Assembly: GCA_963514005.1 (NCBI GenBank)
Contig: OY740787.1
Span: forward strand, 14,756,001 to 14,820,000
Length of the DNA stretch: 64,000 bases
Direction of reading: 5' to 3'
Source of the DNA: Raja brachyura
Taxonomy: Eukaryota
A model generated the notes under the pieces. The model was not told the origin of the DNA and did not search any database. It saw only the letters and a program-made list of their open reading frames with translations. Both the position numbers and the translations under genes were made by a program. Below are positions 956 to 34,959 of this stretch, in pieces (within the stretch, counting starts at the first letter, position 1; the number at the start of each line of letters is the position of its first letter).

Positions 956-956
956 G

Positions 957-7447: not shown

Positions 7448-7696
7448 AAGTCGAAAGCCCTTGGCCTGACTATATAAGAGAGCGCAGGAATGCAATCTCA
7501 ATGCGGCCACACGGGACAGGGCAGTCCTATTGCAAGATAAATGAAGAGCCGTGCAGCTCCAGTGAAGACACTAGCTCGTCCTCAAAAATCAAGAACTCTC
7601 TGGGCTCACTGCCGCATTTAACCGAGCCGCAAACTCCCTACCGGGCAGTGTGTTTGTCAGTGGACCCCCGAAATGGCTACATGGACCAACGCTATT
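7448..7696 (+). CDS. GLI2: GLI-family coding exon (GLI2 locus; homologous to GLI3 exon 3), 249 bp, phase 1-1
   Basis: Polypyrimidine acceptor tttccccttcctccatacag| and donor |gtacgt. Translates (E)VESPWPDYIRERRNAISMRPHG...EEPCSSS...GSLPHLTEPQTPYRAVCLSVDPRNGYMDQRY, collinear with human GLI3 [21 protein letters not shown]...EEPSTSS...[31 protein letters not shown] (recalled). Joins in frame to the 60786 exon (TAT T|CC TCG CAC). Confidence 0.88.
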
Positions 7697-8719
7697 GTAC
7701 GTATTTACTCATCTGCTACTCATTTATGTTTTACACGGAAAAGCCCTCGCATTGGGCTGCGATTCCACTCGATCATGTAAAATTGTAAATGAGTCAGAAT
7801 AGTAACACTTCTTTTTAAAAGATGATCACACATATTTGTCTGGTCCATCCATGCCTTGTATCGCTGTAATTTCAAACTTTTTTTTAACACTATCTATCTG
7901 ATGAAATCATTCATATTGTAAAGTGATCCTGCTGCTCCATGGTAAACATTTGCATGTTGCTCTGTGTTGGAAAATGGCATGCTTCCAGAGGTACAGGTCA
8001 GTACGACTTTTGATGGGATATTTTTCAACAGTAGATGTAATTTATTATAGGAAGGTTACAGGTCAAAGGTATCTTAACTCGGAGCAAAGGCAAGATCTAT
8101 GGGGATTATCCGAGGACATTAAGTGATGCCTTAGAAGAGAGTGGATAAGCACAGCCAATTACTTTGCTATCCTTTTGACACATCTAGAGAAACTAATTGG
8201 CAATGGGCTCGCCTTTGACTGGAAGACAAATTTGTTTTTTGAATTTCTCAAGACGAGGGAAGAAGGGTCCAAAATGTAATTTGCATTTGGCAATATGTTA
8301 AGCCACAAGTCAAAACTCAGGAGAAGTTGCAGTTAAGATTGCCGGGAAGAAATTAAACTCTGGATTTGTTGTCTTCAAGATGATGTTAAGAATGCAGAGG
8401 GGAAATTACTGTTGACCGATACTTTGAGCTGTGTGTAGCATTGATCATTAAAACTTACTTCCCTGCATTGTGGTAGATAGGCTACGTGAAATGGATTAAG
8501 GAGGGAAAATGCCAAATCACGTGATGGGGGCGCCACATTAAACGTCTTCTCTTAGTTTCACTGCCTGGTATTTTTATCTAAATGATTTTGAGTGGCATAC
8601 AGAAGCTTATGATCCAAGGCTAATTAATCCACGCTGCATTTTGATGACTACATTTCATGCTTTGCTGCAAATCAAAATGGAACGATCCTTTTATGAATTT
8701 CAAATGATGGTACTGTGAG

Positions 8720-9000
8720 AGCACTCATGAGGAGTGAGAAGTTTAAAGGAGATCTGACAATGATTTTTTTTCTACACTGAGGGCGGCTGCAATCTGAACG
8801 CACTGCCTGAGAACGTGGTGGAAGCAGATGCTCCATTTTACAAACATTTTCAGTAGCATCTGGACAGACATTTAAATCACCAAGGTGCAGTAGGCTACAA
8901 ACCAAGCATTGGTTAATGGGATTAGTATAGGCAGGTACTTGATGGTTGGTGTGGATATAATGGGCTGAAGAACCTATTACTGTGTTGTATGATTCTCAGA
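8720..9000 (+). mobile_element. Degraded CR1-like 3' end
   Basis: gagaagtttaaaggagatctg...ttttctacactgagggcgg...atgggctgaagaacctattactgtgttgtatgattct. Confidence 0.55.
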
Positions 9001-9044
9001 CACTTCCAACATTCCCAGTTTATTGAGGTCCAAGTAAGGTGAAA

Positions 9045-9260
9045 AAAACACACAAAGTGCCGTAGTAATTCAGCAGGTCAGGCAGCACCTCTTGAGAACA
9101 TGGATAGGTGTTGTTTTGGGTCGGGACTCTGCTTCGGACCCTTCTGGACCTGAAACTACACCTATCCATGTTTTCGAGAGGTGCTGTATGACCCGCTGAG
9201 TTACTACGGCACGTTATGGTTTTTTTTTGTAAACCTGCATCTGCAGTTCCTTGTTTCTCC
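9045..9260. mobile_element. Penelope terminal repeat fold-back
   Basis: Inverted arms gtgccgtagtaattcagc...cacctc.tgagaacatggataggtg / cacctatccatgttttcgagaggtg...gctgagttactacggcac. Confidence 0.7.
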
Positions 9261-11897
9261 AGGAAATGTAGAAATTTTGTTAATTAGGTTTATCCAAGAC
9301 TTAGAAAGCAATGGCTACAGTTCTGTCCTTTGAGTTCCCAGAGAGAAAGTGGGGTGAAGTCACTTATTGGATTTCCTAAGATTAATTATGGTGAAATCCT
9401 TTTACAAACTCCAAAAGATTCGAGTTTGAAGAGCTGTTTCAGCAAGTTACCAAATAAATATAAGTGCCAGTGATTTTCTCTCCAGGTGAGTCCACAAAAT
9501 AGCATAGGCAGTGAGCTCTCTCAGCAAGTCACAAAATGTCCAGATAGTAAAGCACTCGCTTGAATTCAGCAGGAAACTTTCTGCAGACCAGCACTTCCTT
9601 CTGGCTGTGGTCAAGGTATACTATACGTAAATAAATACTGCCTAATATTCCTTAGTTGCCAATTCTTCCCAAGCGCCTTCAAAGAAAGTCTTCATGTGTT
9701 CTCAGAAGTAAATGAAAATCCCCCCGAAAGAAAAAAAAACTGCAGATGTTGTAAATCTGAAATTAAAAAAACAGAAAGCCTTGGAAATGCTCAGTGGGTC
9801 AGGCAATATCCACAGTGGAAGAAAGAGTCAAAGGCTCAGGTAGATGGCATTTCATACGTTCTGTCTGACCTGCCGAGTGCTTACATTTTCTGTTTTTGCC
9901 CTTGATGCCATCTAAGATGCCATGTGTGGCTCAAGTTATTTCTTTCTGCATCCTGTTATAATTAAGGTCATAAGGGATAGGAGCAGAATTAGGCCATTCG
10001 GCCCATCAAGTCTACTCCGCCATTCAATCATGGCTGATCTATCTCTCCCTCCTAACCCCTCAACTTACTTTTTTCTTCCAGTTCCACTATAAAACTCTGA
10101 ACACAAGTTCTGTGTTTTCCCATTGTGAGAGAGAACAGATATTCAGCAAGAAAATAAGCATCAGTTTTGGGGATTAACGAGGGGAAGGGTTCTGATGGAA
10201 TGGGTTAAATTGAGCGACGCACAAAATATCAGTGGACACAGAACAGTACGGCACAGGCACTTCAGCCCACAATATCCATGTCGAACATGATGCCAAGTCA
10301 AACTAATCCGCTTTGCCTGCATGTGACCCACCTCCCTCCGTTCTCTGCAAAACTACGTTAATGTAGAATGTACAAAAATAACTGAAATACAATAATGTGT
10401 AAAGAAAGTGTGTTGGAGATCAGAATTTACAAGGTGCACCAGACTGGCTAAAAGTGCAGAGAGAACTGACAAGGGAGAAATGATCATTTGATCTGACTCC
10501 GTCAGTGAAGTGAGAACCACACAGATTGAACCAAATTAACAGTTTAAAAAATCTTTCCGAAATAATTGAGAAAAATAGTCAAATTACTGTGGCCTCATTA
10601 ATTGGACTAAACCTTCGATGTGATTCTTTGCAAGAAGGGACTGAAAAGGCAAAAAGAAAATCCTTTGATTTTCTCAACGTTGCCACATGAGGAGTGCTGT
10701 CGTTAAACTGGGTTTTCATTCTGCACAGCTTGCTGTCGGAGGAGCATGTCTGACAGCCTGTTTACGAAGTAGTAGCATTCAAAATATGTCACTGAAGTTT
10801 CTTTAAGGTGTAGCTTTTTAAATATAGGCTGTTTTCCTCTGTAACATAAATCATCAATGTGAGTAGTTTATTTTCCATTTACAAGCAGCGGGAGACCAAG
10901 GAGGCAATGATTATTGGGGCGGGCACATTATTACACTGTGCAGTGATTTGGGTGTGTTTCAGAGAGTTTATGTGTGTTTTTTTAATAAGAGAACGCAAAT
11001 AGACTCCCTTTGTAAAATCTAAGCACAGCGGTCCAGAAGTGCATCCGTCCTACTAATTTAGCAATGATGCTAATCTGGTTGATAAATATATGAGTTAATG
11101 GTTTGCGCTGAACTGGAGGGGAGAAGAACTTCAGGCGTAGGTGTCTAGCATTGTAGTCCTGTATTGCTGTAACATCTTTTCAGTAGTTGCCTACTGAATG
11201 ATACCTTGGTGGCACTACTGCTCCTCTGTGTGCCTTTTTCCCTCACTACTTGATCGGCGGTGTTCGTTTTTGTGCCATTGATCATTTTCTCTGTATCCAC
11301 CCACACTGTGGAAGAAGAAAAAAAAAACTCACGGCCACCTCTTTGCTGGGAACCAAGACGTGCTTTAATCTTCGTTTACGTGGGTATGGCTTACAACGCT
11401 GAAAGGATTGAATCACCCTTAGCCTCAGATTTTGTCAGCAGTTTTGCAGTTCAAATATCATATTTGCAGAAACAATTTTAATTAGGTTTAATGATGCTAA
11501 AATAAGGCAGTTTGGTAAATGTGATACCATTGATTGCAGTTCCTGCCATTTCTTGGCAAACTCTCCATCCTAGCATCAGGGTTTGATCCCTTAATTAGAA
11601 GCTTCCCGAGGTGGGTCTGTTCATAATTATGTTTTCCAACGAGATCTTTGTTGATTTTGTTTTGTTTATGTGTTATAAAAGAAGCAATGCTGCTTAATCA
11701 AGAGGAAGTCTAACTCTATTTTGAAGCATTCTTGAGTGCTGGTACTGAACCCTATCACATAACTGAGCAGCTGATGGATGTAGGCATCTTCCAATAATCC
11801 TATGGGAGCCACCATTTCATGTGCCCCGCCCAAAGCAGGGAAGATAAAGACTCTTAATGGTAACACATCTTTTCCATAGGTATCTTTCCCAGGAACT

Positions 11898-12740
11898 TGT
11901 GTAGGAAGGAACTGCTGATGCTGGTTTAAACTGCAGATAGACATAAAATGCTGGACCCTTCAGAAGAAGGGTCACGACCCGAAACGTCACCCATTCCCAC
12001 TCTCCAGAGGTACTGCCTGCTGAGTTACTGCTGAGTTACGCCAGCATTTAGTGCCTATATCCCTTTCCCAGGAACTTGCTGAGTTTTGATGTGACTGAGG
12101 AAGAACAGTCAGAAGTAGATGTAAAATGGCTGCCATTGCTATTGAGAATTAACTCCACAGCGAGAGATCAGGGTCTGGAGGTGTTAATCTCGCTCTCATC
12201 CTTCACTCCTCAGTCCACTAATCACCCACTGTCCCCTGTCTCGTGACTGCCCCTCTCATGTTACTCTGCGATCCTCCCTCTCCACTCTTAGTCCCAATGC
12301 AGGGTTTTGACCCAAAATGTCGACAATCCCTTTCCCCCCTCATCGATGCTGGTTGACCTGCCCAGTTCCTCCAGCGATTGTAGAAACAAGGAATTGCAGA
12401 TTCTCGTTTACATAAAAAGATACAAAGTGCTGTAGTAACTCAACGGGCCAGGCAGCATCGCTGGAGAACATGAAGAGGGGACGTTTTGGGTCGGGCCCCT
12501 TCTGCAGATTGAAGGATCCTGATTCAAAACATCACCTATCCATGTTCTGCAAAGATGCCGTCTGACCCGCTGAATTACTCCAGCACTTTGTGTCTTTTTT
12601 TCCCTTAAGCAGATTTTGAAGGGTTTTGACCCGAAACATTACCTATTCCTTTTCTCCAGAAATGCTGCCAGACCTGCTGAGTTACTCCAGCTTTGTGTGT
12701 CTATCTTCATTGCAAACCAACACCTGCAGTTCCTTCTCAC
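11898..12740. mobile_element. Nested cluster of Penelope terminal repeats
   Basis: Several copies in both orientations, including gaagaagggtcacgacccgaaacgtca at about 11963. Confidence 0.65.
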
Positions 12741-13189
12741 ACTCTATGTTGCTTGGATAGATTGACTTCTGTGTTTACATGGAATAATGAAGCATTTATG
12801 TCAAGTGAGTTAAATACTGACCTGCTGTGAACTATTCCATGCTAACGTGAGATCTTCTGTTCAATTACTAGCATGTGAGTTCCACTGTTTGGTGAGTTAG
12901 TAATTACATTGCGCGATCAGCTTAATTGTTGGAGTGTGTGCTGAGGTTAAGTGATCTCAGTCAAGGCAGCAATAGTGATACAATTTGCTACACTAACCTT
13001 GGGTTGTGAAATGGAAAATCATTCCAAATGCATGCACTTGATCAAGATTCAATGGTTTCTGCAACATAATGGTGATAACATGCAGGATAGCCCAGTGGAA
13101 TTTTCCTGCTCTTTTGGGTGGGAAGCACCAACCTACTTAAAAATTGCAATAGCACCTGCTCCAACTAATAAAATGCATCTATGAACCAG

Positions 13190-13670
13190 AGTCACCGAGT
13201 CGTACCGAGTACCGAGCGTAAAAAACAGGCCAAACTTGGACCAAATTGCCCACGCCAACCAACATGCCCAAATTGCCCACGTCAACCAACATCTAAACTA
13301 GTCCCACCTCCCTGCATTTGGCCCATATCCCTCTAAATCTATCCTATTCATGTCCCTGTTATAAACGTTTCTTAAACATTGCGATAGTCCCTGCCTCAAC
13401 TACCTCCTCTAGCAGCTTGTTCCATACACCCACCACCCTTTGTGAAAAAGGAGCTTCTCCTCAGGTTCCTATTAAATCTTTCCCACCTCGCCTTCAAACT
13501 GTGTCCTCTGGTTCTTGATCGCCCTGCTCTGGGTGTACCGATCCATTCGTCTCACGATTTTGTACACGTCTATGAGATCACCCCTCATCCTCCTGCACTC
13601 CAAGGAATAAAATCCTAGCCTGCACAACCTCTCCATATAGCTCACGCCCCTTGGCAACATCCTCGTAAAA
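13190..13670 (-). mobile_element. CR1-like LINE 3' end
   Basis: Minus-strand VSYMERLCRLGFYSLECRRMRGDLIDVYKI. Confidence 0.85.
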
Positions 13671-14019
13671 AAAGTAAAATTTTACCGACCGCAATTTCAA
13701 GGTGAATTATTCAACAAGGAATAAGGGAGAAAACATAAGGTGGAAGTGGGTGGTGACTAATGCTCTGGTGCATTTTAGTTGCTGGCAGTGAAATTAAAAA
13801 AATCTTGCAGTATCCATTTTACTAAACATATTCTCAGATGAATGAGAAGGGAGTTTATTAAAACATGCAGCAGCACAAGGCATCTGGTTCATATTTTGCC
13901 TGAAAATCAGAGTACATATCAAACACGATATAGAATTGTTGTGACTTCAACTCTCTTGAAAAAGATTTTGCAGTTGACATCAGATGGGGTTTTTTTCCCC
14001 AAGGAAATGGGATTTTATG

Positions 14020-14515
14020 AGCTGGAGCAGAATTAGGCCATTCGGCCCATCAAGTCTACTGTGCCATTTAACCATGGCTGATCTATCTTTCCTTCTCAAC
14101 TCCATTCTTCTCCTTTCTCTCCATTGCCCTTGACACCAGTACGAAACAAGCATCTGTCGATCTCCGCCTTTAAAACATCCACTGACTTGGCCTCCACAGC
14201 GGTCTGTGGCAATGAATTCCACAGATTCACCTCCCTCTGACTAAAGAAATTCCTCCTCATCTCCTTTCTATAGGTATGTCCTTTTATTCTGAGGCTATGG
14301 TCTCTGGTCCTGGACTCTCCCACTGGTAGAAACGTCCTCTCAACATCCACTTCATCCAGGCCTTTCACTATTCGGTACAATTCAATGAGGTGTCCCCTCA
14401 TCCTTCTAAACTCCAGCGAGTACAGGCCCAGTGCCATCAAAAGCTCATCATCATATGTTAACACTCATTCCTGGGATCATTCTCGTAAACCTCCTCTGGA
14501 CCCTCTCCAGGATCT
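14020..14515 (-). mobile_element. CR1-like LINE 3' end
   Basis: LGLYSLEFRRMRGHLIELYRIVKGLDEVDVER...FFSQREVNLWNSLPQ. Confidence 0.88.
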
Positions 14516-14859
14516 ATCCAGGATTTGCTTGGTTATGAAAAACCAAATGATGTAGCGGTCGTTGTGTTTATCTAAGTAACATGACCACGTATGGGCTCTG
14601 CATTGCATTTTTTGTACTCTACACTGAAGTCGTTTACGGTGAGCGTGGCAGAGTAGCAGCCTATGTTTCAAAGAGTGGTCGTTTTAATAGTGTAATTGAC
14701 CTCCTGCTTTCCTGCAGCACGACATTTTTCGTTTATGAAAAAAAACGTAGCATTTTGTTTGTGTTTGTCCCAGAGATAAAAAAAAATAGTGGATGTATGC
14801 AAAGAAAATTGGCAGAGCAAACTGTAACATCGTGTCAGTTTGAGGAGTAATGGCATAAT

Positions 14860-15310
14860 TCCACATGTCCTCGATGAATCCTTAAATTTAATTTAAAGGC
14901 AGCTCTAATCTGCTGTACTTTTTCAAACATGAATTCAGCCACATATGGTAAAATTAACCTCTGTCCTGTGCTCCAGTGCTGCGGTGTAATCCTTCGCTAA
15001 ATTGCCGCTGATTATCTTCAATTTTAATTAACTTTTGTTTTGATTGAGCAATTAGCTTTACTTTCTTTCTTGATCCCTCGTTGATCCTCCCACTGAAGCT
15101 GTCAGTTCAGACAGGGATTACATTCCACAGGGGCGCTCCACTGCTCAACCAAATTAGTTGCCGGTGCGCGGGAGGCAAGACAAGCTATTTGACCGCTTAA
15201 GCACAGGGTATCAATGCCAGCAAGGGACAATCAGGAACCTGCTGGTGGATTCCTCCCATTCTAGGTTTGACAGTTTAATGCTAATTGGAGGTGGCCTCCA
15301 CTGCTGCTGT
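14860..15310. promoter_or_regulatory. Candidate conserved non-coding enhancer
   Basis: TE-free, complex sequence dense in TAAT/ATTA, TAATCC/GGATTA and TGTCA motifs inside a GLI intron. Conservation cannot be verified from this window. Confidence 0.4.
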
Positions 15311-15314
15311 GGGC

Positions 15315-15680
15315 TTATGTTCATATGTGATACGAGCAGAATTAGGCCATTTGGCCCATCAAGTCTACTCCGCCATTCAATCATGGCTGATCTATCTCTC
15401 CCTCCAAACCCCATTCTCCTGCCTTCTCTCCATAACCCCTGACACATGTACTAATCAAGAATCTATCAATCTCTGCCTTAAAAATATCCATTGACTTGGC
15501 CTCCACAGCCGTCTGTGGCAATGAATCCCACAGATTCACCACCCTCTGACTAAAGAAATTCCTTCTCATCTCCTTCCTATGGGAACGTCCTTTAATTCTG
15601 AGGCAATGACCTCTGGTCCTAGACTCCCCCACTAGTGGAAACATCCTCTGCACATCTATTCTATCCAGACCTTTCACGAG
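15315..15680 (-). mobile_element. CR1-like LINE 3' end
   Basis: VKGLDRIDVQRMFPLVGESRTRGHCLRIKG...WDSLPQTAVEAKS. Confidence 0.85.
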
Positions 15681-16152
15681 TGCAAATGCAGCATGGGACA
15701 ACTCTAGTCAAGTTTGTATGAGTCACATTTAAGTCAGTCACCATTGGAGCCACCAAGCACCTTAGATATAATATGCAATGTATTCCATAGAGCCATGCAG
15801 GAGGAAAACCATGCAGTCCTTGGAGACCACAGCAAACCACAAGTACCATTTATATTAATCCTGCAATAATCCTGCTTTAACCTCCCTCCATTGACATCAC
15901 CAACAAATTGCTATTCAGTTTGGGGCAATTAAGGACAATTTAGACTGGCACTGGGAAGAAACACACACAATGTGTGTGGGGAGAACATTCATCGGGCGAA
16001 CGTTCAAACTCCACACAGACAGCACGGGAGGTCTATTAGCTACACTACTCTGTCACCCCATGGACAACTCACTAATGTCTGACCTCTCTGTCTTAAGGAA
16101 TTAGTCTGATATTATTGCAGCAGAAGATTAGAAGGAGCTGCTGAATATATTG

Positions 16153-16525
16153 AGGACTGCTCTCTAGTTGGTGGTAGGATGATTCATTGCCTGATAACAG
16201 CTGGGGAAAAAAAACTGTTCATGAATCTGGAGGTGACGGTTTCTTCCCAGCTGTTATCAGGCAACTGAACCATCCTACTACACTAGAGAGCGGTCCTGAA
16301 CTACTATCAACCTCACTGGTGGCCCTCGGATTCTCTTTGATCGGACTTTACTGGCTTTTTCTTGCACCAAACGTTATTCACGTTATTCCCTTCATCGCGT
16401 ATCTGTACACTATGAATGGCTCGATCGTAATCATGTATTGTTTTTCCGCTGGCTGGTTAGCACGCAACAAAAGCTTTTCACTGTACCCTGGTACACGTGA
16501 CCATAAACTAAACTAAACTAAACTA
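16153..16525 (+). mobile_element. Rex1/Babar-like LINE 3' end with an inverted 5' piece
   Basis: FFPAVIRQLN C-terminal motif and a (taaac)n tail. 16153-16218 is the reverse complement of 16236-16297. Confidence 0.6.
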
Positions 16526-17402
16526 CCGTGACTGGGACAAATGGGACTGAATGAAGTATTGGAGTAACTGAGTGGATCAGGCAGCATCTCCGGAGAACAT
16601 GAATAGGTGATGTTTCGGGTCAGGGACGTTCTTCAGATTGTCTCCAGAGATGCTGCCAGACCCGCTGAGTTATTCCAGCACTTTGTCTTTTCTTTTGTAA
16701 ATCAGCATTTGCAGTTCCTTAAACCAGCATTTGCAGTTCCTTGTTTCTACTGAATGAAAAATCATGAGAGGAAGCGTATAAAATCATGAGAGGAATAGAT
16801 CGGGTAGATGCACAGAGTCTCTTGCCCAGATTAGGTGAATCGAGGACCAGAGGACGTAGGTTTAAGGTGAAGGGGAAAAGATTTAATAGGAATCTGAGGG
16901 GTAACTTTTTCACACAAATGGTGATGGGTGGGTGTAAGAAACAAGCTGCCAGAGACATTGTATAAGACGTTGTATAAGACGTTGGTGAGATTGCATTTAG
17001 AATATTGTGTGAAGTTCTGGGCACCTTGTCATTGGAAAGATATTGTCAAGCTTGAAAGGGTTCAGAAAAGATTTATGAGGATGTTGCCAGGAATAGAGGG
17101 TGTGAGCTATGAGCTATGGGGAGAGGTTAAGTAGGCTGAGACTCTATTCCATGGAGCGCAGGAGGAAAAGGGGTGATCTTATAGAGGCGTATGAGATCAT
17201 GAGAGGAATAGATCAGGTAGATGCACAGAGTCTCTTGCCCAGAGTAGAGGAATCTAGGGCCAGAGGACATAGGCTTAAGGTGAAGGGGAAACGATTTTAT
17301 AGGATTTCGAGGGGTAACCTTTTCACACAAAGGGTGGTGGATGTATGGGACAAGCTGCCAGAGGAGGTAGTTGAGGCAGGGACTATCCCAATTTTAATGA
17401 CG

Positions 17403-18092
17403 ATTTTTAAATGTTTCTGAGTATTAGAGATATTTAACAGTTGTTAGACTTAATTGTAGGCTTGCACGGAATACAAACTTTCACCTTTGTTTCCGATCCT
17501 TTCAGAGCCTATCAGGCAATTCTGAATAGGCACATGAAACCTCTTTGCTTCATTGGTGAGACCAAGCGCAAACTCGGCGATCGTTTTGCTGAACACCTTC
17601 GCTCAGTCCGCCTCTGCCTACGGGATCTCCCAGTTGCCAAACACTTTTAAGGGGCTGTTCCACTGTGGCGACCTAATCTGCAAGTTCTGGCGAGTTTGCC
17701 CTCGACTCATACTCGCAGCATGGTCGACACAAGATCGTAGGAAGTCTTTGTAACTCTTCTCCATGCTCGAGAGTAGTGCCCGTGTACTCGAGGCCTCAGC
17801 TAGGTCGCGCCGTATGGGAAAAAATTGATACATTTTTTACTCGTAGGCTTAGTCGTAGTATGTCATCATGTTAATCATAGGTAATCAAGGGTAGTCGAAG
17901 GTAATCGAAGATAGTCGTAGATAGTCTTCAACATTGTCGAAGGGAGATCGAAGGAGGTCGTCTTCACTCTCCACTATTCGGTGTCCAATTTTCCCGAAGT
18001 TAGTCGAAGCTGGTCTTCAACATTGTCGAAGGAGGTCTTCAACATGACAGTTTTTCAAACTCTCTTAAACTCTTCTAAACTTGCCAATTAGG
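17403..18092 (+). repeat. Local duplicate of 19605-20252
   Basis: Near-identical 0.65-0.7 kb (the ORF track shows near-identical peptides at 17441 and 19642), flanked by the 19-bp direct repeat aggcagggactatcccaat. Confidence 0.92.
17650..18092 (+). mobile_element. Truncated PIF/Harbinger-like MITE (part of the duplication)
   Basis: Left TIR aggggctgttccactgtggcgacctaat; right TIR cut after attagg. Confidence 0.75.
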
Positions 18093-18839
18093 CAGGGACT
18101 ATCCCAATATTTAAGAAACAGTTAGACAGGTACATGGATAGGACAGGTTTGGCGGGATACTGGCCAAATGAAGGTTGGTGGGACTACTGTAGCTGGGACA
18201 TATGGGCAAGTTGGGCCAAAGGTGTCTGCTTCCACACCGTATCACTCTATGACTCTATGAAAATAGTTTTGCATTGTTTGTGCTTGTGTTTGACAATTGA
18301 ATAGTTGAATACAAACATCAAACAGTGAAGGCAAATATTAATATGCACATTTGGAGATCAAACTCACCAACACATTCATCTCCTCTCATTCGTGACGCAG
18401 GTTAATATTGTTATGAAGACAAGTCTCTCCCCTTCCAAATAAACATATGTATAAGATCTGACCTGGTGTTAGATTTATTAGCCACTAATTAGACACAGAA
18501 TAAGTAAAGGGAAAAATCCTACATTATGGAGCTGGTTTATGTTTACTTCAAAGCACTCAATGTCGTTGTCGCAGAGCTATACAGGATGTAAACAGGCCCT
18601 TCGGCCCGACTCATCCATGCTAACCAAGTTGCCCAACCAAGCTAGCCCCATTTGTCTGTGCCTGACCCATATGCCTCCAGACCATTCCTATCCATGGGTG
18701 TTAATACATTGGTCATAGCATATTTACACTAAAAACCCATTAAAGTCATTTGCTTATCATTCAAGAAGTGACTAGGTAGTTAATGGAAAACTGTACTGCA
18801 GAGCAGGAAGAAATCAATGAGTGGACATTCAAGGGAGGT

Positions 18840-19125
18840 CAAATCATGAGTTCAAATCCCACTACGACAGCCAGGAAATGTAAATTCACTTAATTAGTTA
18901 AACAGACCTGGAAATAAAAGCTGGATTCTTTAATGATGATGATAGAACTACCAAACAGCTGAAAAAGCTCCTCTGGTTCGCTCTTGTTCTTCAGGGAAGT
19001 AAATGCTTATGGTCTGGCTTGTATCTTTCTCAGACCCACAGTAAAGAGGCCGCTTCTGAATTGGTTCAAGAGTATTTGGTACAGACAGTAAATGCTGACC
19101 TTCTTGTGACTCCCACACCCAGTGA
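18840..19125 (+). mobile_element. Old chondrichthyan SINE relic
   Basis: B-box-like gagttcaaatccc head followed by a body also seen, reversed, near 46385 and 63530-63990. Confidence 0.45.
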
Positions 19126-19462
19126 ATGAACCAAAACAAAAATCGAGGGTGAATCATCCTGAGTGCGACTGGTGATGTAAAGGGGGCTGCTGGCACTCTG
19201 CCATTCCTGCAGACGTCCTGGCTTTAGCCAAGATTCATTGACAGGCAGATGGTGTTGCATCTACCCCGACACTGCATGTCTAAACTCCATGTGGAATCCA
19301 GCAGTGGGACCCAGTCTCGTGGGATTCATCAAACACAAGTCAAACCAAACCTCTTGGTTTCAGAGGCAATTTTCACCCTGTGGATTAGGAGGCCAGGAGA
19401 AAGGTGACAAGTTTGATTTTGTTTATTTTAATATTTTTCATTATTTCTGAATATTAATTAAT

Positions 19463-19570
19463 TTTTAATTCTCAGAAACATTAAAAAAAATCTATAACAG
19501 TTCACGTCTGATTATTATTTTTTATAACGTGAACTGTTATTGTTTTTTAAAATGTTTCTGAGAATTAAAA
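19463..19570. repeat. AT-rich inverted repeat (arms of about 45 bp, 19-nt loop)
   Basis: ttttaattctcagaaacatt...ataacagttcacgt / acgtgaactgttat...aatgtttctgagaattaaaa. Confidence 0.8.
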
Positions 19571-19739
19571 TTTGATTTTTAATTAACCATCTATGTGAGC
19601 TCTTTTTTTAAATGTTTCTGAGTATTAGAGATATTTAACAGTTGTTAGACTTAATTGTAGGCTTGCACGGAATACAAACTTTCACCTTTGTTTCCGATCC
19701 TTTCAGAGCCTATCAGGCAATTCTGAATAGGCACATGAA

Positions 19740-20880
19740 ACCTCTTTGCTTCATTGGTGAGACCAAGCGCAAACTCGGCGATCGTTTCGCTGAACACCTT
19801 CGCTCAGTCCGCCTCTGCCTACGGGATCTCCCAGTTGCCAAAGACTTTTAAGGGGCTGTCCCACTGTGGCGACCTAATCCGCAAGTTCTGGCGAGTTTGC
19901 CCCCGACTCATACTCGCAGCATGGTCGACACAAGGTCGTAGGAAGTCTTTGTAACTCTTCTCCATGCTCGAGAGTAGTCCCCGTGTACTCGAGGCCTCAG
20001 CTAGGTCGCGGCGTATGGGAAAAAATTGATACATTTTTTACGCGTAGGCTTAGTCGTAGTAGGTCGTAGTAGGTAGTCGAAGGTAATCGAAGATCGTCGT
20101 AGATAGTCTTCAACATTGTCGAAGGGAGATCGAAGGAGGTCGTCTTCACTCTCCACTATTCGGTGTCCAATTTTCCCGAAGTTAGTCGAAGCTGGTCTTC
20201 AACATGACAGTTTTTCAAACTCTCTTAAACTCTTCTCAACTTGCCAATTAGGTCGCCCAAGTGGGAGTGCCCCTTAACTCTCCTGTGTAGGAAGGAATTG
20301 CAGATGCTGGTTTAAGCTGAAGATAGACACAAAAAGCTGGAGTAAGTCAGCGGGTCAGGCAGCATCTTTGGAGAAAAGAAACATGTGACGTTTCGGGTCG
20401 AGACCCTTATTCAGGCCATTCTTTCCCATTCCCATTCTGACCTTTCTGTCCCGGACATCATCCGTCATCAGAGTGAGGCCAAATGTAAATAGGAGGAGCA
20501 GCATCTCATATTTCACGAGGGCGGCTTACAACCCAGCGGTATTAATATTGATTTCTCTAACTTCAAGTATCCTTTGCAACCCCTCTCTCTCTCTGTCAGT
20601 CCCCATCCCTAGTTGTGATACTAGTTTTACTGACATCCTGTTTAATTCCTCTGTCCTTATACTCATTGTCACCTCTCCCATGGCCTATGGTGTGCCCCAC
20701 ATTTCCTTGATTATCGTTGCTTTTTGCATATCTTTCATTTCTCCCATGTGCCGTCTATATCTCTTGTTCCCCTTTCCTCTGACTCTCAGTGTGAAGAAGG
20801 GTCTCGACCCGAAACGTTGCCTATTCCTTTTCTTCAGAGATGCTGCCTGACCTGCCGAGTTACTCCAGCTTTTTGTGTCT
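19740..20880 (+). mobile_element. Penelope-like element 3' end (GIY-YIG C-terminus plus terminal repeat), with nested insertions
   Basis: FIGETKRKLGDRFAEHLRSVR..DLPVA, resuming as degenerate HSDLSV...SEAK..EEQHLIF..LQPSGINIDFSNFK, followed by the terminal repeat with gaagaagggtctcgacccgaaacg. Confidence 0.8.
19851..20274. mobile_element. PIF/Harbinger-like MITE (424 bp)
   Basis: TIRs aggggctgtcccact.tggcgacctaat / attaggtcgcccaagtgggagtgcccct; flanks TTA / TAA; internal gtcgta/gtcgaag repeats. Confidence 0.8.
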
Positions 20881-21459
20881 GTCACCCACTTGTTCATGAT
20901 ACTTCACTGCCTGAGTCCAGGGTGCAAAAGTCAGATTCGCTTTCTGCACCCAGTCCAGTTCAGTGTTAGCGGCCATCCAATGTTAACGGCCATTTTGGGT
21001 AATAAACTGGGTCCAGGACAATCTCACTGCCTCTGGAAGCCCTTCAGTCTGCCAACTACAACATGGGTACAGCACTGAAGCACGACACCTACTTTAATTC
21101 CAAGTTGGCAAATACTTTGTTTGGTGGTGTGTAGTTGTTGGAGCAACGAATCATTTCTGGGTTTGTACCTTTATTCAACAATTCGCCTCTTACCAGTTGA
21201 TCCCACAGTTTCTAGTCATGGGTTTGCAAGTTAGGAACAAATTAACTTTGGAACTAGGCTCCCTCTGCTGGGCAGGCAAGTAATAATAAAATAATACACA
21301 ACTCCAGACACATAATGCAAAATTATAAGGTGTCAATTAATTTCAAACAATATTTTGAAATGTTGCTACGTTAATGTTAGCATACAAACATATAGTGCAA
21401 TTTGTTATATGTTTTAATGAAAATAATGTAATTAGGGTTCTATCATACACCAATAGAGT

Positions 21460-21650
21460 GGGTAGAGCTAGGGCCCCACAGCATCAGAGGCCCGGGTTCA
21501 ATCCTGACCTCGGGTGCTGTCTGTGCAGAGTTTGCATGTTCTCCCTGCGACTGTGGGTTTCCTCTGGGTGCTCCAGTTTCTCCAAGCCACAAGCCAAAGA
21601 TGTGCGGGTAGGCCGGTTAATTGTTGTCTGAAAATAGCTCCTCGTGTGTA
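21460..21650 (+). mobile_element. HE1/V-SINE (partial)
   Basis: tRNA-like head with B box ggttcaatcc, and V-domain gctgtctgtgcagagtttgcatgttctcc. Confidence 0.75.
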
Positions 21651-22161
21651 GGTGAGTGGTTCAATGGTTGAATAGTGTATACAGGGTTTCTGTCCTTTGA
21701 AGTTTAGAAGACCAAACAAATAACTGTCAAAACACGCAAAATTCTTTGAGGGCTTGGCAAGGATCAATGTGATAATTCTAGAACTGGGGTTCATAATCTC
21801 AAAATATGGTTGCAGTGTATCCTATGTGTACAGCATGTGTACAGGCCTGACTCACCCCTGCCAAACAAGATACCCATCCAAGCTTTTCCCATGTGCCCGT
21901 GTTTGGCCCATGTCCTTCTAAAAGTTTCCTATCCATAGGTCTAAGACCATTTCACTCAAAGGGTGATGGATCTTTGGAATTCTCAGCCCCAGTGGGTTGT
22001 GGAGGCTAGAGCCACTGATTTCATTCAAAACTGTTGTCAATATTCAGTCCCCATGCAGCCTGTGCTGCACAAAAAATAAATACAACAATTGCTGGCAGGA
22101 ACAAAAATTAACGTGGGGGCGAGACTGACGAACCAAAATCCGACATGGCACCAATTAGTCA

Positions 22162-22460
22162 TTTAGACTTTAGAGATACAGCGTAGTATCAGGCCCTTCA
22201 GCCCACTGGGGTCATGCCAACCTACGATCACTCCATCGACTGGCATTATCCTGCACACTTTAGGACAATTTACAATTTTACTGAATCCAATTAACCTACA
22301 AACGCGTACGTCTTTGGAGTGTGGGAGGAAACCGGAGCACTCGGAGAAAACCCATACGGTCACAGGGAGAACATACAAACTCCGTACAGACCCGGGGCCA
22401 GGATGGAACCTGGGTCTCCGACGCTGGAAGGCAGCACCTCTATCACTGCGTAATTATGCC
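22162..22460 (-). mobile_element. HE1/V-SINE
   Basis: Reverse V-domain plus a CR1-like tail ending in (ctaaagt)n. Confidence 0.8.
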
Positions 22461-22524
22461 ATTCATTACTTAGTAGTAGGCTCCCTTCAGTCAGGACTGA
22501 CCATGGGTGATGCATCCTAGTTTG

Positions 22525-22910
22525 CAGGTGATGTGTGGTCAGATGCAAGCCTGGGCGATGTCATATGGAGGACAGGCTGTTGCCCATGCAGCACGACCCC
22601 CCCCCCCCCACCCTCTCCACGTCGCTGATCGATCCAAAGGAACAGCAGGGCCATTACAGTTTGGCACCAGCGCTGTCGCAGGAGCTGCCAGAGCGAGGTT
22701 GCAGGCAACGATGAACTGCCTTAGGGGCTCCGACTCCGGATTTTCTTGAGGTTTACTCCAGGAGCCTGGATATGGATATGGCTATAAGGCAGTGGAGATT
22801 TTAAATCAGAGATGGACTGCCTTCCCAGGCGGACGAGACCCATCTGCCCGAGACTCTTAGGGGCGGGAGCGTCTAACTTCCCGTGCAGGTCTATAGCACC
22901 TACCCACTGC
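22525..22910 (-). mobile_element. RTE-clade non-coding (5' UTR-like) fragment
   Basis: GC-rich aactgccttaggggctccgactccggattttc...gactgccttcccaggcggacgagacccatctgcccg resembles recalled RTE/Expander-type UTRs. Confidence 0.4.
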
Positions 22911-23559
22911 CCATTAATTATATGTTGGATAACAATAACTTTAGAGCCAATAACACCAATAATACAGTAACAACAAACAACAAAACTAATATAATAAACA
23001 AAGATTTACACCTGTATTGATAACTTTTGGGGTATTAGAGAAGCGAAGGAGGGTTTGATCATCAGGATCTTGATGAATGACAGAGCTGGCTCAATGGGCA
23101 GAATGCTCTACTCTTATTACTGCTGTTCTTATACCCTCATCTTGAATCTCAGGTTGGATATGAGAAGGTGTGTGTGATATCTAGCCAATACCGACCCAAC
23201 ATCTCCAATTACGCTAATTATCAGGACTTGGAACAAGAGTTGCTTGCAGGGATTGTGAAATGGCGTCAAAATGGCACCTCTTGCAAACAGTGTGGTGACC
23301 TGTAGTCTGTGCTAACCGGGGGATTGGCATGTGTGTGGTGATAGTCTTGCTAAAAAAAGCGATTTCACTGTACTTTGGTAGGGGTGATAGTAAAGAAACA
23401 ATAAAGAAACCATAACCTGGCTGGTGCCTTACCTGCACTGCAACATTTCAAAGTATTTGAACAACTTAGTTTATGATTGCATTGGTGGAACGTCACAAAG
23501 TGTCTAGCTGCATACTTGGCTCGAGTAGCCTTAAAATTCACATCCAACATGTAAACTTC

Positions 23560-24240
23560 CACCCAGCAGTTAATTGGCTCAAAGTAGCAGAGTATCCTTT
23601 CTGTGGCCGCTTTTAAACCACGTTTGTTCTGCTTGTCTATGCACCATTCTAGTTATTATTTTTATTGCTATCTCAAAAGATAGGGAGTCAGTGCATTATT
23701 CATAAAGCTGGGTTGGTTGAGTTTAGTGATGATGAATAGGTTCAAAGGAGAGGTTTTGTCTGTCAGTGTTCCCGCTGATGGCAGGAAACCTGGCAGAAAA
23801 TTTGTTAACATGCTTAATGTCTGTGGTTACTGTCACCCATCCATAGTTAGCTTGCAGGCACCGTGATTCTTCACAGGCCTGCTCCTTTGCTTGTGCAGCG
23901 CTACAATGTGACAGCAGCTGAAGCAGACCCATTAATTTGGAGGATGAAATATGCATGCTGCTGATAGATAGTGCGTGTGATGCCTCTGTTATCTAATGAG
24001 AAATCTGTTGTGTCAAGAGGGCTTGGGCAAATGGGACTCGGGGTAGAGTTGCCTGTGTTTGATTTAGTTGACTGGAGAATAAATGTGAGACCAATCTTCT
24101 TTATAATTCAGAAATACCCACTGAATCTTAAAAGTTCTTCAAAGCCGTGCATTAGAGAGGAAAAAAGAGTATTAGTGTTATTTTGCCAGCTTCCTTACAT
24201 GGTGAATAGTGAATTAATATTATTCGCTGAAAAGTGAATA
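23560..24240. promoter_or_regulatory. Candidate conserved non-coding element
   Basis: TE-free, with tgtca/tgaca, cagctg, cattaatt and gata motifs. Confidence 0.35.
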
Positions 24241-24611
24241 ATATTAGAACCATATAAAGTGATGGGCTTCACAAGTTAATGCAGGATAGGCAGAGTCCAG
24301 ATGAAAGGTCTCAACTTGAAACATTGACTGTCCTTTTCCCCCACAGATGCTGCACGACCCACTGGGTTTGTTTGTCCCCTGATAGCTTGTTTGCTTGCAG
24401 AGTCAAGTTGGATATAAAGTATTCTTCCTCTGGATTGTCAGAACTAGACAATAGGGGAATCAAGGAAACCAGCAGGAAAGTGTAGCTGACACTAGTAATG
24501 AGTTCAACCATGATCTTATTGAACAGGCTTCTGTACATCATAGCCTTTTGCTCCAACATGTTTGTGTTCAGCTTTAAAAGAGTAGTTCCATATTAGTCCA
24601 TTTGATATGTC

Positions 24612-24875
24612 TTTAGACTTTCGAGACACAGGGCGGAAACAGGCCCTTCGACCCACCGAGTCCGTGAAGACCAGCTATCACCGCATTCACCACTGTCACC
24701 TACACTCTAGTGGCAATTTATGTTTTTTACCAGAGCTAATAAATCTACAAGCCTGTGTGTCTTTTGAGTATGGAAGAAAACCTGCATGGTCATGGGGAGA
24801 ACATACAAATTCCATCCAAGCAGCACCGTTAGTCAGGATTGGACCCGCGTCTCTGGCGGTGTGAGGCAGCAGCTC
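24612..24875 (-). mobile_element. HE1/V-SINE
   Basis: ggaaacaggcccttcg...gtcaggattggacccgcgtctctggcg. Confidence 0.7.
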
Positions 24876-25719
24876 TTCCCATCTAGGGGAATGTGCAACA
24901 AGTGAGGATGGGAAGCAGGGTGAAGGATGGTTGTTCAAGGAAGTTAAGAGGCAGGATGGAGGAACAAATAAGGCAGCAACTCGACCACTGCGCCACCGAG
25001 CCGCCCGGGGCAGCCGCCGCTGTAATTCAGTGGAAGTCCTTCTTGCCTCTGAGATTGTGAATTTGGGTCTCGCTCAAGAACCAGGCCATGGAATATTAGA
25101 ATGACACACCATGCAGTAGTTAATGCAGGTCCTTTGTTCATTGATGATTTTATGGGCACTGGTTCTGATGGAGTATGGACGTGATGGTTCATATAGCCTC
25201 CCGCCCCAATGTAATTTAATGATAAAACAAAAAGTGAGACATAAAAACACATTGGGTGTAAGGGGAATTCACAAGATTGCCAGATTCTGACCTGTCAACT
25301 GCAGGGCATTGCTAGAATTAATCTCAAATTCTTAATGTAAATCATTCCTGTTATTGTAGAATAACAGAAAGAATATTGATTCTGATATAAACATATTGAG
25401 TAGTTTTAGTGCTTTCTTTCAAATGGCAAGATAGGTTAAGAGTCAAGTTTTATACAGGGTCAAAATAAATCAAGTAGAAAATAGTTCTCCATTTTGAACA
25501 TAGTACACCAATGTCTAAGCATGAATTGAGTTTTCCAACACACCCTCTAGATACGCTTGCAGGGAGAGATTGATAATAAGACATTGATACTGTGATGATC
25601 TTTTGAAATGCCTTCCCTTTAACTATGGGACCCTGGTGGCATTTTTAATAAATATATTCATTTGCAGGTCAATGGCCATTCATAATTAGGCTTGAGAAGG
25701 TAATGCTGTATCACGTTCT

Positions 25720-26070
25720 TAGTCATAGTGATACAGCGTGGAAACAGGCCCTTCAGCCCAACTTGCCCATGCCGACACATGTCCCATCTACAATAGACCC
25801 ACCTGCCTGTGTTTGGCCCATATCCCTCCCAAACTGTCCTATCCATGTACCAGTCTAATTGTTTCTTAAACATTGCAATAGTCCCTGCCTCAACTACCTC
25901 CTCAAGCAGCTCGTTTCATACACCCACCACCCTATGTGTGAAAAGGTTACCTTCAGATTCCTATTAAATCTTTCCCCTGCAACCTATGGCCTCTGGTTCT
26001 CAATTCCGCAACTCTAGGCACAAGACTCTGTGCGTCTACCCGATCTATGATTCTCATGATTTTATACACG
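25720..26070 (-). mobile_element. CR1-like LINE 3' end
   Basis: VYKIMRIIDRVDAQSLVPRVAELRTRGH; FKKQLDWYMDR. Confidence 0.8.
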
Positions 26071-26089
26071 TGACTTGTTGAAGTTACGC

Positions 26090-26455
26090 GCATTGAAACA
26101 TATAAGATTATTAGGGTTTTGGACATACTAGAGCAGGAAATTTGTTCCCATTGTTGGGGGAGTCCAGAACCAGGGGCCATAGTTTAGGAATAAGTGGTAA
26201 GCCATTTAGAACGGAGATGAGGAAAAACATTTCCACACACAGAGTTGTGAGTGTGTGGAATTCCCTGCCTCAGAGGGCAGTGGAGGCTGGTTCTCTGGAT
26301 GCTTTCAAGAGAGAGTTAGATAGAGCTCTTAGGGATAGTGGAGTTAAGGGAGAGAAGGCAGGAACGGGGTATTAATTGTGGATGATCACATTGAATGGCG
26401 GTGCTGGCTCGAAGGGCCAAATGGCCTACTCCTGCACCTAGTGCTTATTGTCTAT
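26090..26455 (+). mobile_element. CR1-like LINE 3' end
   Basis: FPLLGESRTRGHSL...WNSLPQRAVEAGSLDAFKRELD. Confidence 0.85.
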
Positions 26456-27114
26456 TGTCATTACATTTATACAAGAAATGTGTGATTTATTTCAAACTCG
26501 GGATAGAAGGACAGAATGCGGAACCACTGATTTTTACCATATTCAGGTCAGACGCTTTAGGAAGGTTAAGTTGTGTTTGCTTATCCTAGGTCTTAGGGTC
26601 TTTGGTGTGTGACTTGCTGTAGTCACCTCCTAAAAGGTGTTTGGTACAGGTCCTGATTACAGTCTTGTTGGAAAAACGGCTTTCAGAATCAGAATACATT
26701 CAACAGTGCCCTGCTTGTGTGTGGTGGTGCAGGAACCATGTGGTGCTGAAAGAGTTAATGCTCTTCGGTTTTGTGATCAGTTTTGTGAACTGAAGTGATC
26801 AACAGCAGGGAATGCCATTCACATTGGGGAAAAAAAATAAATCACCCAGTGTTATAAACAGGAAAGCGGGAGGTGAAGCTTGACAGGGCTGGGCTTGAAT
26901 GGGCCGTTTCTCCATGTCGGCACATCACACGCATTCCTAGACACACAGGATGAGCTGTGGTTCCAACTGTCTCGGCTACAGTGCGGGCCAAGCGCGACGG
27001 AGAACAGGAAAGAAGGGCGAGAAGTTGCGCAGGTCAGCAAATGTTTCATGGATTGAGTTTTCATTTTGCATCAGGGCAAGTTAAACGAGACAGTCTTTGT
27101 ATTTTTCATTCTAG

Positions 27115-27420
27115 CCGTTTCCTCTTCTCTCCTCTCCCATTGAGAAGAAGCTTCGGGAACAGCTTCTTCCCCACTGTTGTCAGACTATTGAAGGGTCCTC
27201 CCATAAGTTAGGGTGTAGTCCCGATCTTCCAACCAACTTCATTGCGGGCCTTGCACTTCTTTGTAACTGTAACGCTATAGTGTTGCAGATTATATTCTGT
27301 ACTCTGGTATTTTTCTTGTTGCATTACCTGTTGTACTGGCGTATGACTTGATTGTACTAATGTGCCATCGTGTTTGACTGGATAACACTCAAACCAAGCT
27401 TTTCCCTGAATCTTAGTAAA
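27115..27420 (+). mobile_element. Rex1/Babar-like LINE 3' fragment
   Basis: FSPLP..RSFGNSFFPTVVRLL motif followed by the 3' UTR. Confidence 0.5.
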
Positions 27421-28760
27421 CGCAGCGGTAGAGTTGTTGCTTCACAGCGCCGGAGACCCAGGTTCGATTCTACCATGGGTGCTATCTATACATCAGGCAC
27501 GTGCCGTCAGGGTAGGCAAGGTAGGCACTGCCTACCCTGACTTAACTTATAACATAGTAATAACTAAATATAAATAATAAAGGCATGGGAGAATTATGCC
27601 TATGTAAGAGACCGATCTCTTAGGTAGGCATAATTATCCGTGCCTTTCATCCGCAGCGCTTGTAACACGGGAAGGTCTGTGCAGCCCACGTGCTGTCAGC
27701 GCTGCCTGAAACCGTCAGTTTCAAGCTGGGCTGAAGGCAGCAGAAATTCTGCCTTTGCTGTACTGCGCATGCGCATCAGTCTACTGCGCATGCGCTGCGC
27801 AAGTTTCTTGGCGGGGTTTTCAACTATGGTTTGTCGTGTACCAATGATGTGGTAAATACATTCGGGTAGCTCGGGTGGCTGAGCGGCCGCCGGGACAGAC
27901 AGCAGAACCAGCCACCACCTTAGCTCCTACTGCCGGAGCCCGCTCACCTCCGGCAGCTCTCCATCTAAAAACCTCTCTCCTGCTGCTCGCTGGCCTCACT
28001 CATGTTCTTAAATTCCGACAGTGCGATTGAGGTTACTCGGCTGTAGGAATTTAAGGATTTGCAGGAAGCCGCTGACATGAGCGAAGTCGGCGAGTGGCAG
28101 GTGACAGGTGTTCCGACGGAGAGCACTGCCAAAGGTGAGCGGGACAGCAGAAGGCGCTGAAGTGGCGGCCAGTTCTGCTGTCGGGTCCCGGTGGCCGCTC
28201 GTAGCTCCCCGAGCTGCTTCTATCCCCAGCTACAGTGCGTGGCTTCGCGCCCGGAGAGCTGCGGTAGTGGTGAGTGAGTGAGTTACTGGCAGTATCCCCG
28301 ACACCCTCCTTCTCAACACTCGTGCCCTCCCACAACTTTACAGACTCTACACATGCTGTGAAAGGAACTGTTCCCCCAATTGGTCTAGGACTAGGAAGCC
28401 TTGGGCAAATTGAAATGTCACTGTTTTCATTTCTTTATTTATTTAATGGAGAGAACAATCTGCGCATGCGCGGTTTAATTTTTTATTAAGCGGACTGAGT
28501 GCCCACCCTGAGTAATTACTCACAGCACGTGCCTGCTATACCTGGTACGTTCTCCCAGTGTCCATGTGGGTTTGCCCCAGGCCCTCTGGTTTCCTCCCAC
28601 ACTCCAAAGACGTATAGGTTTGTAGGTTAAGTGGCTTTGGTAGAGATTATAAATTGTCCCCAGTGTGTAGGATAGTACTAGGGTATAGGGATCGCAGGTC
28701 GGCGTGGACTCGGTAGCCAATGAGCCTGTTTCTGCGCTGTAGCTCTAAACTAAACTAAAC
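27421..28760 (+). mobile_element. HE1/V-SINE split by a hAT insertion
   Basis: Head at 27421-27493 (cagcggtagagttg...ggttcgattc); body resumes at 28544 and ends in (ctaaa)n. Confidence 0.8.
27494..28535. mobile_element. Non-autonomous hAT-like DNA transposon (1042 bp)
   Basis: TIRs caggcacgtgccgt / acagcacgtgcctg; 8-bp TSD ctatacat / ctatacct; subterminal tgcgcatgcgc repeats; no transposase ORF. Confidence 0.85.
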
Positions 28761-28837
28761 GTGATAATGATATACCAATATTATAGTGATGTTCAGTTGC
28801 AGGTATAGTTTCTCCCAAGTAAAGAGTAAAATTCTCA

Positions 28838-29097
28838 CAGAGTCTGCGCCGACCAGCGATCCACACGTACTAACATTATCCGACACACACCAGGGACAAT
28901 TTACAATTTTACCAAGCCAATTAACCTACAAACCTGTATGTCTTTGGGATGTGGGAGGAAACCGGAGATCCCGGAGAAAACCCATGTGGGTCAACGAGAG
29001 AACGTACAACCTCTGTACAGACAGCACTCGTAGTCAGGAACGAACCTGATTCTCAGGCACTGTGAACTAGAAGCTCTACCACTATGCTACTGTGCCA
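28838..29097 (-). mobile_element. HE1/V-SINE
   Basis: Reverse V-domain and tRNA-like head. Confidence 0.8.
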
Positions 29098-29261
29098 ACA
29101 TATTGTTCTACTTTCTATGTTCAATGGTGGTGCTTGAATTCCCTCTGGGGTCCGATGAAAAATCTGTGAGAATAGAAACACATGTTTCTCTCTCCACAGA
29201 TGCTGCCTGGCCTACTGGGTGTTTCCAGAATGTTGTGATTTTGCTTTAGGCATTAGTGTTG

Positions 29262-29582
29262 TTATGTTGGGTGAATCCAGAACCAGGGGCCACAGTCTTA
29301 GAATAAAGGGGAGGTCATTTAAGACTGAGCTGAGAAAAAACTTTTTTACCCAGAGAGTTGTGAATTTATGGAATTCCCTGCCACAGAGGGCAGTGGAGGC
29401 CAAATCACTGGATGGATTTAAGAGTTGGATAGAGCTCTAGGGGCTGGTGGAGTCAAGGGATATGGGGAGAAGGCAGGCACGGGTTATTTGTTGCGGACGA
29501 CCAGCCATGATCATATTGAATGGCGGTGCTGGCTCGAAGGGCCGAATGGCCTCCTCCTGCACCTATTTTCTATGTTTCTATG
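29262..29582 (+). mobile_element. CR1-like LINE 3' end
   Basis: MLGESRTRGHSLRIKGRSFKTELRKNFFTQRVVNLWNSLPQ. Confidence 0.85.
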
Positions 29583-29989
29583 TTATGTGTGTCTGGACTT
29601 GTGTATTGGCCTGAGTGGCTAATTACATGAGTGAACCAGCTGGGATTTTACAGCTTAGGAACAGCTTGAAGGTTACTTTTTTTTAACTCATATTTGCCCC
29701 ATAATCAGAGTTATGAATACTCAAGGAACAGCAGATGCTGGAATCTTGAGCACAACACGTCTGTGGAGGGAATGAACAGGCGATGTTTTGGATCGGGATC
29801 CTTCTTCAATCCAAGGAAGGATGCCGACCCGAAAAATGTCTTATCCATTCGCTCCTTACTTGCTGCCTGATCCACTGAGTTCCTCCAGAGTTATGAAACC
29901 AGGTTCAACTTCTCAAACTGACCTTGGTGGTAACTGAAGTGGCATTTTCTTGATTCTCAATCTCAGCTTTTGGCATAGCATATGAACCA

Positions 29990-31860: not shown

Positions 31861-31894
31861 AATTATTACGTAAAGTTTGAAGTCTATCAATGAA

Positions 31895-32345: not shown

Positions 32346-32507
32346 AAGATAGCCTAATTGATTTATTCCCATCTACACAAGAGAATATATTAGAGTAGGA
32401 CACTTGACCAACCTGCACTCACATCCCCACCATTCCTAAATTCTCCCCCCCCCCCCCCCCCACCCCCCTTTCAATGAGATTATAGACCTCTGCCTCAGAT
32501 CTCATTT

Positions 32508-34950: not shown

Positions 34951-34959
34951 TTACACCAT

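Follow-up and report, generated by a model that had tools for sequence, protein, structure and literature searches.

The 64-kb window analysed here (the whole stretch of skate DNA, 64,000 nucleotides) carries the second coding exon of a GLI gene and, across a very long intron, the coding exon that follows it (Table 1). By protein homology the gene is the GLI2 orthologue: the best matches of the second exon were shark and ray GLI2 proteins at 96–89% identity (Amblyraja GLI2, 96%), 80 of its 82 residues are identical to Leucoraja GLI2, and contig C4 of the same genome holds a paralogous exon (57% identical) and next exon (61% identical) that belong to a separate GLI3. In a quick tree built from 23 rows (N-terminus plus zinc fingers), skate and shark GLI2 clustered with bony-vertebrate GLI2 (SH-aLRT 96), and the motif-bearing Gli proteins of lamprey and hagfish paired with each other outside both the GLI2 and the GLI3 clade, in an unsettled position. 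The preliminary description, made from the letters of this DNA, had spoken of a GLI N-terminal exon; the exon is real, and protein matches and tree now narrow it to GLI2. The second coding exon of GLI3 (primate residues about 42–122) is homologous, occupies the same position in its gene and carries the same motif (Ala57 in macaque), whereas here the exon lies in GLI2, and the bony-vertebrate GLI2 proteins examined do not have it.

The exon is genuinely transcribed and spliced, with the RNA status of the sequencing runs being guessed. Its acceptor AG (7446–7447) is preceded by a pyrimidine tract, its donor reads GTACGT from 7697, and a frame open from 7450 yields the 82-residue peptide. In all four of the runs, contig coverage was confined to 7448–7696 and the 3′ loose ends continued in the exon that starts at 60786. 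On the 5′ side, the loose ends of runs X1, X3 and X13 matched the final part of a coding exon that begins MAAQAQTT and occurs in a single genome copy 94 kb upstream. These contigs covered the exon and its flanks only, a design blind to exon skipping. Run X9 joined two distinct upstream partners to the exon, the second of which had no match in window positions 1–7400 (best, 5 mismatches). The X13 contig left the exon (7667–7698) into sequence unlike the usual next exon, which may be an extra cassette exon or an alternative 3′ terminus belonging to a related species.

Elsewhere in the window, positions ~3000–4700, 3–4.5 kb upstream of the exon, contain few repeats and look promoter-like (GA runs, CCAAT, GC-rich words and GTGAGT near 4501); they are a candidate alternative first exon. 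CpG content gave no clear promoter mark across positions 1–7400. A low-complexity, GC-richer stretch at 5933–6992, whose overlapping open frames reach 286 codons, has the appearance of a repeat rather than a gene. Many short pieces of the introns (for example 14096–14464, 15381–15707 and 33858–34298) bear a likeness to LINE reverse transcriptases at their 3′ end and to SINE-like repeats. Rfam gave no matches within the 64-kb window.

Table 1. Coordinates of GLI2 features in the window (P positions are counted from the pseudo-phosphosite Ala, P0)
Feature	Coordinates	Strand	Remarks
Second coding exon, skate GLI2	7448..7696	+	249 nt, phase 1-1, skippable in frame; from splice sites and contig ends
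Trp at P-10	7462..7464	+	Shark/ray GLI2 only; outside the conserved motif
Conserved motif YIRERRNAI (P-7 to P+1)	7471..7497	+	Pseudo-phosphosite Ala at 7492-7494
Met at P+3	7501..7503	+	Predicted start of motif-less GLI2/GLI3 isoform models; Met in 112/125 rows
EPCSSS, likeness to SPOP-binding consensus	7546..7563	+	Candidate, from sequence only
DPRNGY, second conserved block	7663..7680	+	Invariant in 113/113 jawed-vertebrate rows; also in amphioxus Gli
Intron to next coding exon	7697..60785	+	53 kb
Next GLI2 coding exon	60786..60892	+	GT donor at 60893; from contig 3′ loose ends

Positions 7462–7503 translate as WPDYIRERRNAISM, with RRNAI at 7483–7497, Arg at P-5 and Trp at P-10, exactly as first claimed. 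Among the best 120 of 601 homologues, ERRNA was present in 111; the nine without it are seven shark and ray GLI2 models that skip the exon, through a clean junction giving Ala that matches the phase 1-1 prediction, and two that start at the downstream Met. Every aligned exon-bearing row (113/113) keeps ERRNA. Across 125 rows chosen on ERRNA, which are related, partly redundant and hence not independent, P-7 is Tyr or Phe in 124, P-5 is Arg in 123 and P+1 is Ile, Val, Leu or Met in all, and the consensus of the conserved unit is [YF]-x-R-E-R-R-N-A-[ILVM]. In these rows, selected as they were on ERRNA, P0 is Ala in 125 of 125 and never Ser or Thr; the other five Ala-containing columns of the exon each mix Ala with Ser and/or Thr. 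The conserved aromatic is the Tyr/Phe at P-7, which the first reading did not single out, and not the Trp at P-10, found in 5 of the 125 rows.

Invariance of ERRNA within jawed-vertebrate GLI3 is weak evidence, because 188 of 482 N-terminal columns (39%; 95 rows) are invariant there, as are 9 of the 36 columns with an Ala majority in the N-termini of GLI3. It is the sequence comparison with cyclostomes that provides strong evidence. Among the best 150 of 480 representatives (50% clustering), lamprey Gli (YVRERRNAL) and hagfish Gli (YSRERRNAL) keep the motif, as does teleost GLI3, and in lamprey and hagfish little of the exon beyond the motif remains alignable; across 11 deep lineages the invariant columns were ERRNA, one Glu and DPR only. 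Amphioxus Gli and a second hagfish Gli in the same set have a DPRNG-like block and no motif, and seven further proteins with the downstream block and no ERRNA comprise two Met-start GLI2, three amphioxus and two hagfish sequences. That second hagfish Gli is fast-evolving; its downstream block is degenerate and its SUFU-binding-like SYCQL stretch is altered. The motif is thus at least as old as the cyclostome–gnathostome split. Conservation of RRNAI across orthologues, one of the checks that the preliminary description had proposed, is borne out (ERRNA 113/113 plus lamprey and hagfish, with P+1 varying among I/V/L/M). Its picture of RRNAI as among the best-conserved blocks of an otherwise divergent exon holds at cyclostome depth and not among jawed vertebrates, where the exon is 57% identical to that of GLI3 and DPRNGY is as invariant as ERRNA.

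DPRNGY is older than the RRNA motif, since it is kept in amphioxus, where the motif is absent; the block had no family match, and is lost with the exon in bony-vertebrate GLI2. A further stretch, EPCSSS, resembles the SPOP-binding consensus nonpolar-polar-S-S/T-S/T given in an excerpt of PMC9289945.

The exon has a patchy history. No bony-vertebrate GLI2 with it appeared among the best 120 of 601 homologues, where a high rank would be expected, and within the best 150 of 480 representatives it is missing from the GLI2-like proteins of mammals and teleosts, from skate GLI1 and from one lizard GLI3 model. Because it is absent from the proteins examined, we infer that bony-vertebrate GLI2 lost the exon, a statement about the proteins matched, among which GLI2 of chimaera, bichir, gar and coelacanth does not figure. 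The 123 listed cluster members comprise 66 with an intact motif, 27 whose first residue is the P+3 Met, 4 without the exon and 26 that are fragments or begin at a later point. The Met-start members, GLI2 of sharks and rays and GLI3 from chimaera to primates, are gene models only, and may be real products of alternative first exons or default model starts; the review PMC7119169 states that human GLI3 isoforms had not been reported. The suggestion that the motif is splice-controlled agrees with predicted gene models that have and lack it. Shark and ray GLI2, in which the ancestral exon is kept beside models that skip it, may represent an intermediate before the loss in bony vertebrates.

The motif resembles known pseudosubstrates of PKA's catalytic subunit (PKA-C) in its core. 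An extract of PMC5059767 gives R-R-X-S/(A/G)-hydrophobic, X being variable, as the consensus of this class, and the sequence of the GLI motif fits its minimal R-R-X-A/G-hydrophobic form, with a hydrophobic P+1 (I/V/L/M) in 125/125 rows. Like PKI (PKIA/B/G; PF02827), it sets a non-phosphorylatable Ala in a disordered context with a core of RRNA[IL]; P-3 to P+1 of GLI equal, or differ by one conservative change from, the RRNAL of three of the skate's four PKI genes, and lamprey and hagfish Gli have RRNAL exactly. A fourth PKI-family gene (G000:C22:8924041-8924145), beyond the three familiar ones, has Asp for Asn at P-1.

The likeness to PKI ends at P-3. The skate's four PKI genes all show Phe at P-11, Arg at P-6, Thr at P-5 and Gly at P-4 before RR[ND]AL, whereas neither Phe P-11 nor Arg P-6 occurs in any of the nine GLI rows compared and P-4 is Glu in GLI. 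Glu also occupies P-4 in some PKA substrate sites (CFTR S660, VASP S157) and is thus compatible with PKA, which nevertheless leaves its invariance unexplained. In the region of the PKI amphipathic helix (P-15 to P-8), Pro is present in eight of nine GLI segments and one of four PKI segments. A control model of PKI had a helix at 3–12, while the AlphaFold model of the GLI exon was of low confidence (pLDDT 60, pTM 0.13) and DSSP assigned nothing; the prolines argue against upstream helix propensity in the GLI sequence. The Trp at P-10, previously read as a shifted PKI aromatic, does not bear that reading, being confined within the 125 rows to five shark and ray GLI2 proteins and flanked by Pro. 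No Pfam family matched the exon at E ≤ 1, a PF02827 search of the skate genome gave four matches, none at the GLI2 locus, and, unlike PKI, the motif sits inside a transcription factor of 1650 residues, itself among the substrates of PKA. We regard it as a candidate variant of the PKA pseudosubstrate class, and not as a member of the PKI family.

Two Hedgehog regulators offer precedents in the same pathway. Like the GLI motif, that of SMO is conserved among orthologues, has Arg at P-3 and P-2, Ala at P0 and Ile at P+1, and makes no P-6 salt bridge; unlike it, SMO has a Trp at P-13 in a predicted PKI-like helix, auxiliary helices, GRK2-dependent avidity and demonstrated binding (parts of PMC13186710 and 10.1101/2021.07.05.451193). 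The SMO peptide binds with a KD of 823–911 nM, compared with 1.1 nM for PKI(5-24) (10.1101/2021.07.05.451193, in part), a lower affinity that a passage of PMC13186710 proposes to attribute to loss of the salt bridge between P-6 Arg and E203. Both SMO and PKI use the upstream helix (passages of 10.1101/2021.07.05.451193, PMC13186710 and PMC11573668), and the helix-less PKI(14-22), which by our residue count still has the P-6 Arg, remains inhibitory at about 36 nM compared with 1.7 nM (PMC11573668, in part). With neither the P-6 Arg nor the helix, the GLI motif would be expected to bind more weakly than SMO or PKI(14-22). ARHGAP36 likewise has R-R-X-A-hydrophobic in an Arg-rich N-terminal region; its RRGAV differs in that nanomolar binding and degradation of PKA-C have been demonstrated (PMC5059767, in part).

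In our leading reading, PKA-C would bind the motif weakly, as a decoy in its active site or as a docking element, and we give this a probability of about 35%; the odds attached to the different partners are judgements and not computed values. The disordered N-terminal stretch of vertebrate GLI2 and GLI3 would present a short linear motif that, being non-phosphorylatable, could insert into the cleft of the catalytic subunit, with Arg P-3 and P-2 in its acidic part, Ala at the phosphosite and Ile, Val or Leu filling the P+1 pocket. Affinity would be low, as PKI's P-6 Arg and helix are missing, and any effect would be local, because a transcription factor is too scarce to inhibit PKA in bulk. If PKA-C binds, then more plausibly free PKA-C would be captured on GLI, or the motif would compete in cis with the C-terminal RRxS sites of GLI and tune the phosphorylation threshold. 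Exon skipping or a downstream Met start, as in the gene models, would remove the motif. It is hard to see the motif as a simple tether speeding up processing, because a filled active site cannot phosphorylate at the same time.

The PKA-C reading is raised by the chance rate of the exact core and by the pathway context, in which PKA turns GLI proteins off, GLI2 and GLI3 are PKA substrates with several RRxS sites and SMO and ARHGAP36 provide precedents; RRNA[ILVM] arose in 0.2–0.4% of 5000 shuffles of each of three GLI proteins, a pattern picked post hoc. It is lowered by the missing affinity elements, by residues that the PKA consensus does not predict (invariant Glu P-4, Arg P-5 in 123/125 and Tyr/Phe P-7) and by the literature, where searches of listings and abstract starts, with IP-MS supplements outside their scope, gave no report of the GLI3 N-terminus binding PKA-C. 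The same unpredicted positions lend weight to a non-kinase partner (an adaptor, co-repressor, or trafficking or ubiquitin-ligase subunit) that reads the motif whole, its likeness to PKI being coincidental: five consecutive invariant residues with Tyr/Phe at P-7 and Arg at P-5 exceed what PKA demands, the broad consensus RRx[AG][ILVMF], likewise picked post hoc, arose in 12–13% of 5000 shuffles of the three GLI proteins, and multivalent binding is known for the GLI3 N-terminus, with SPOP as one example (PMC9289945, in part). We consider such a partner as likely as PKA-C; against it, the exact core is far rarer by chance than the broad one, and neither Pfam, the PDB (no meaningful match) nor the ESM Atlas (no usable match) offered a candidate.

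A different basophilic kinase is an unlikely partner. AKT, SGK, RSK and S6K prefer RxRxxS/T, and RRx-[S/T]-hydrophobic agrees with Aurora A or PRKX/PKG. The invariant, non-phosphorylatable P0 together with Arg at P-5 and P-3 and a hydrophobic P+1 fits RxRxxS/T, and Arg, nearly constant at P-5, is absent from the six commonest residues at P-6; yet Asn at P-1 matches PKI, and PKA is the established GLI kinase (excerpts of PMC7119169 and PMC8703657). Least probable, in our judgement, is a nucleotide-level element (a purine-rich splice enhancer near the acceptor, or the context of the internal Met) or incidental conservation. The stretch is purine-rich, lies 23–50 nt from the start of an exon with very long introns on either side and shares the codons AGA GAG between paralogues, but four of the seven RERRNAI codons differ between the skate's own GLI2 and GLI3, all silently and one by two bases, which indicates selection on the protein, and the peptide persists in cyclostomes. 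Among narrower candidates, the sole PDB sequence match of the exon, PKC-beta (E 1.1), was taken as chance; a MAPK D-site was rejected because the P+3 hydrophobic is not kept in lamprey or several teleosts, and a phosphosite at P+2 because that position varies (T/A/S/P/V). A furin-type RxRR cut was set aside, as GLI proteins are not secreted.

A more ambitious form of the PKA-C reading, which we consider doubtful, is that vertebrate GLI3 and ancestral GLI2 carry their own PKA-C decoy, feeding back through the repressor. Full-length GLI would capture free PKA-C in competition with the PKI motif of SMO; the processed repressor, which would keep the N-terminus and lose the C-terminal PKA sites, would then act purely as a decoy, feeding back on its own production or damping PKA where GLI3 sits on chromatin. 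An off switch would be provided by alternative first exons and by skipping of the exon, and bony-vertebrate GLI2 would have lost the decoy permanently while specialising as an activator.

The idea that the motif relates to the more efficient processing of GLI3 is contradicted by published domain swaps, and shark and ray GLI2 has the motif too. In an extract of PMC4538735, human GLI3 in which residues 644–842 were replaced by the PDD of human or catshark GLI2 made no repressor after forskolin, whereas GLI3 PDDs in the same assay gave repressor; the N-terminus, and hence the motif, was retained in all of these constructs. Because repressor failed to form with the motif in place, the motif neither accounts for the difference between GLI3 and GLI2 nor suffices for processing, for which a passage of PMC8703657 also credits the PDD. 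The motif may nonetheless modulate processing.

The exon itself is already annotated in public gene models. Literature searches covering listings and abstract starts (subscription papers and supplements lying outside their scope) and keyword passages of PMC9289945, PMC4910529, PMC6143667, PMC1435915, PMC7119169 and 10.1101/2021.09.27.461918 described neither the motif nor a retained exon in chondrichthyan GLI2, and the word pseudosubstrate does not occur in the GLI3 review PMC7119169. In flies, PKA reaches Ci by way of a Cos2/Fu scaffold, and excerpts of PMC8703657, the source for this, name no equivalent direct PKA–GLI contact in vertebrates. In primate GLI3 numbering the motif includes Arg54, Arg55 and Ala57, upstream of the mapped repressor domain at 106–235 (PMC7119169, in part).

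By sequence comparison the motif is real and unusually old. Being vertebrate-specific and placed at known residues of GLI3, it makes a possible direct contact between PKA and GLI cheaply testable. Whatever its partner, ERRNA, unchanged from hagfish to primates, marks an uncharacterised functional site in the human disease gene GLI3.
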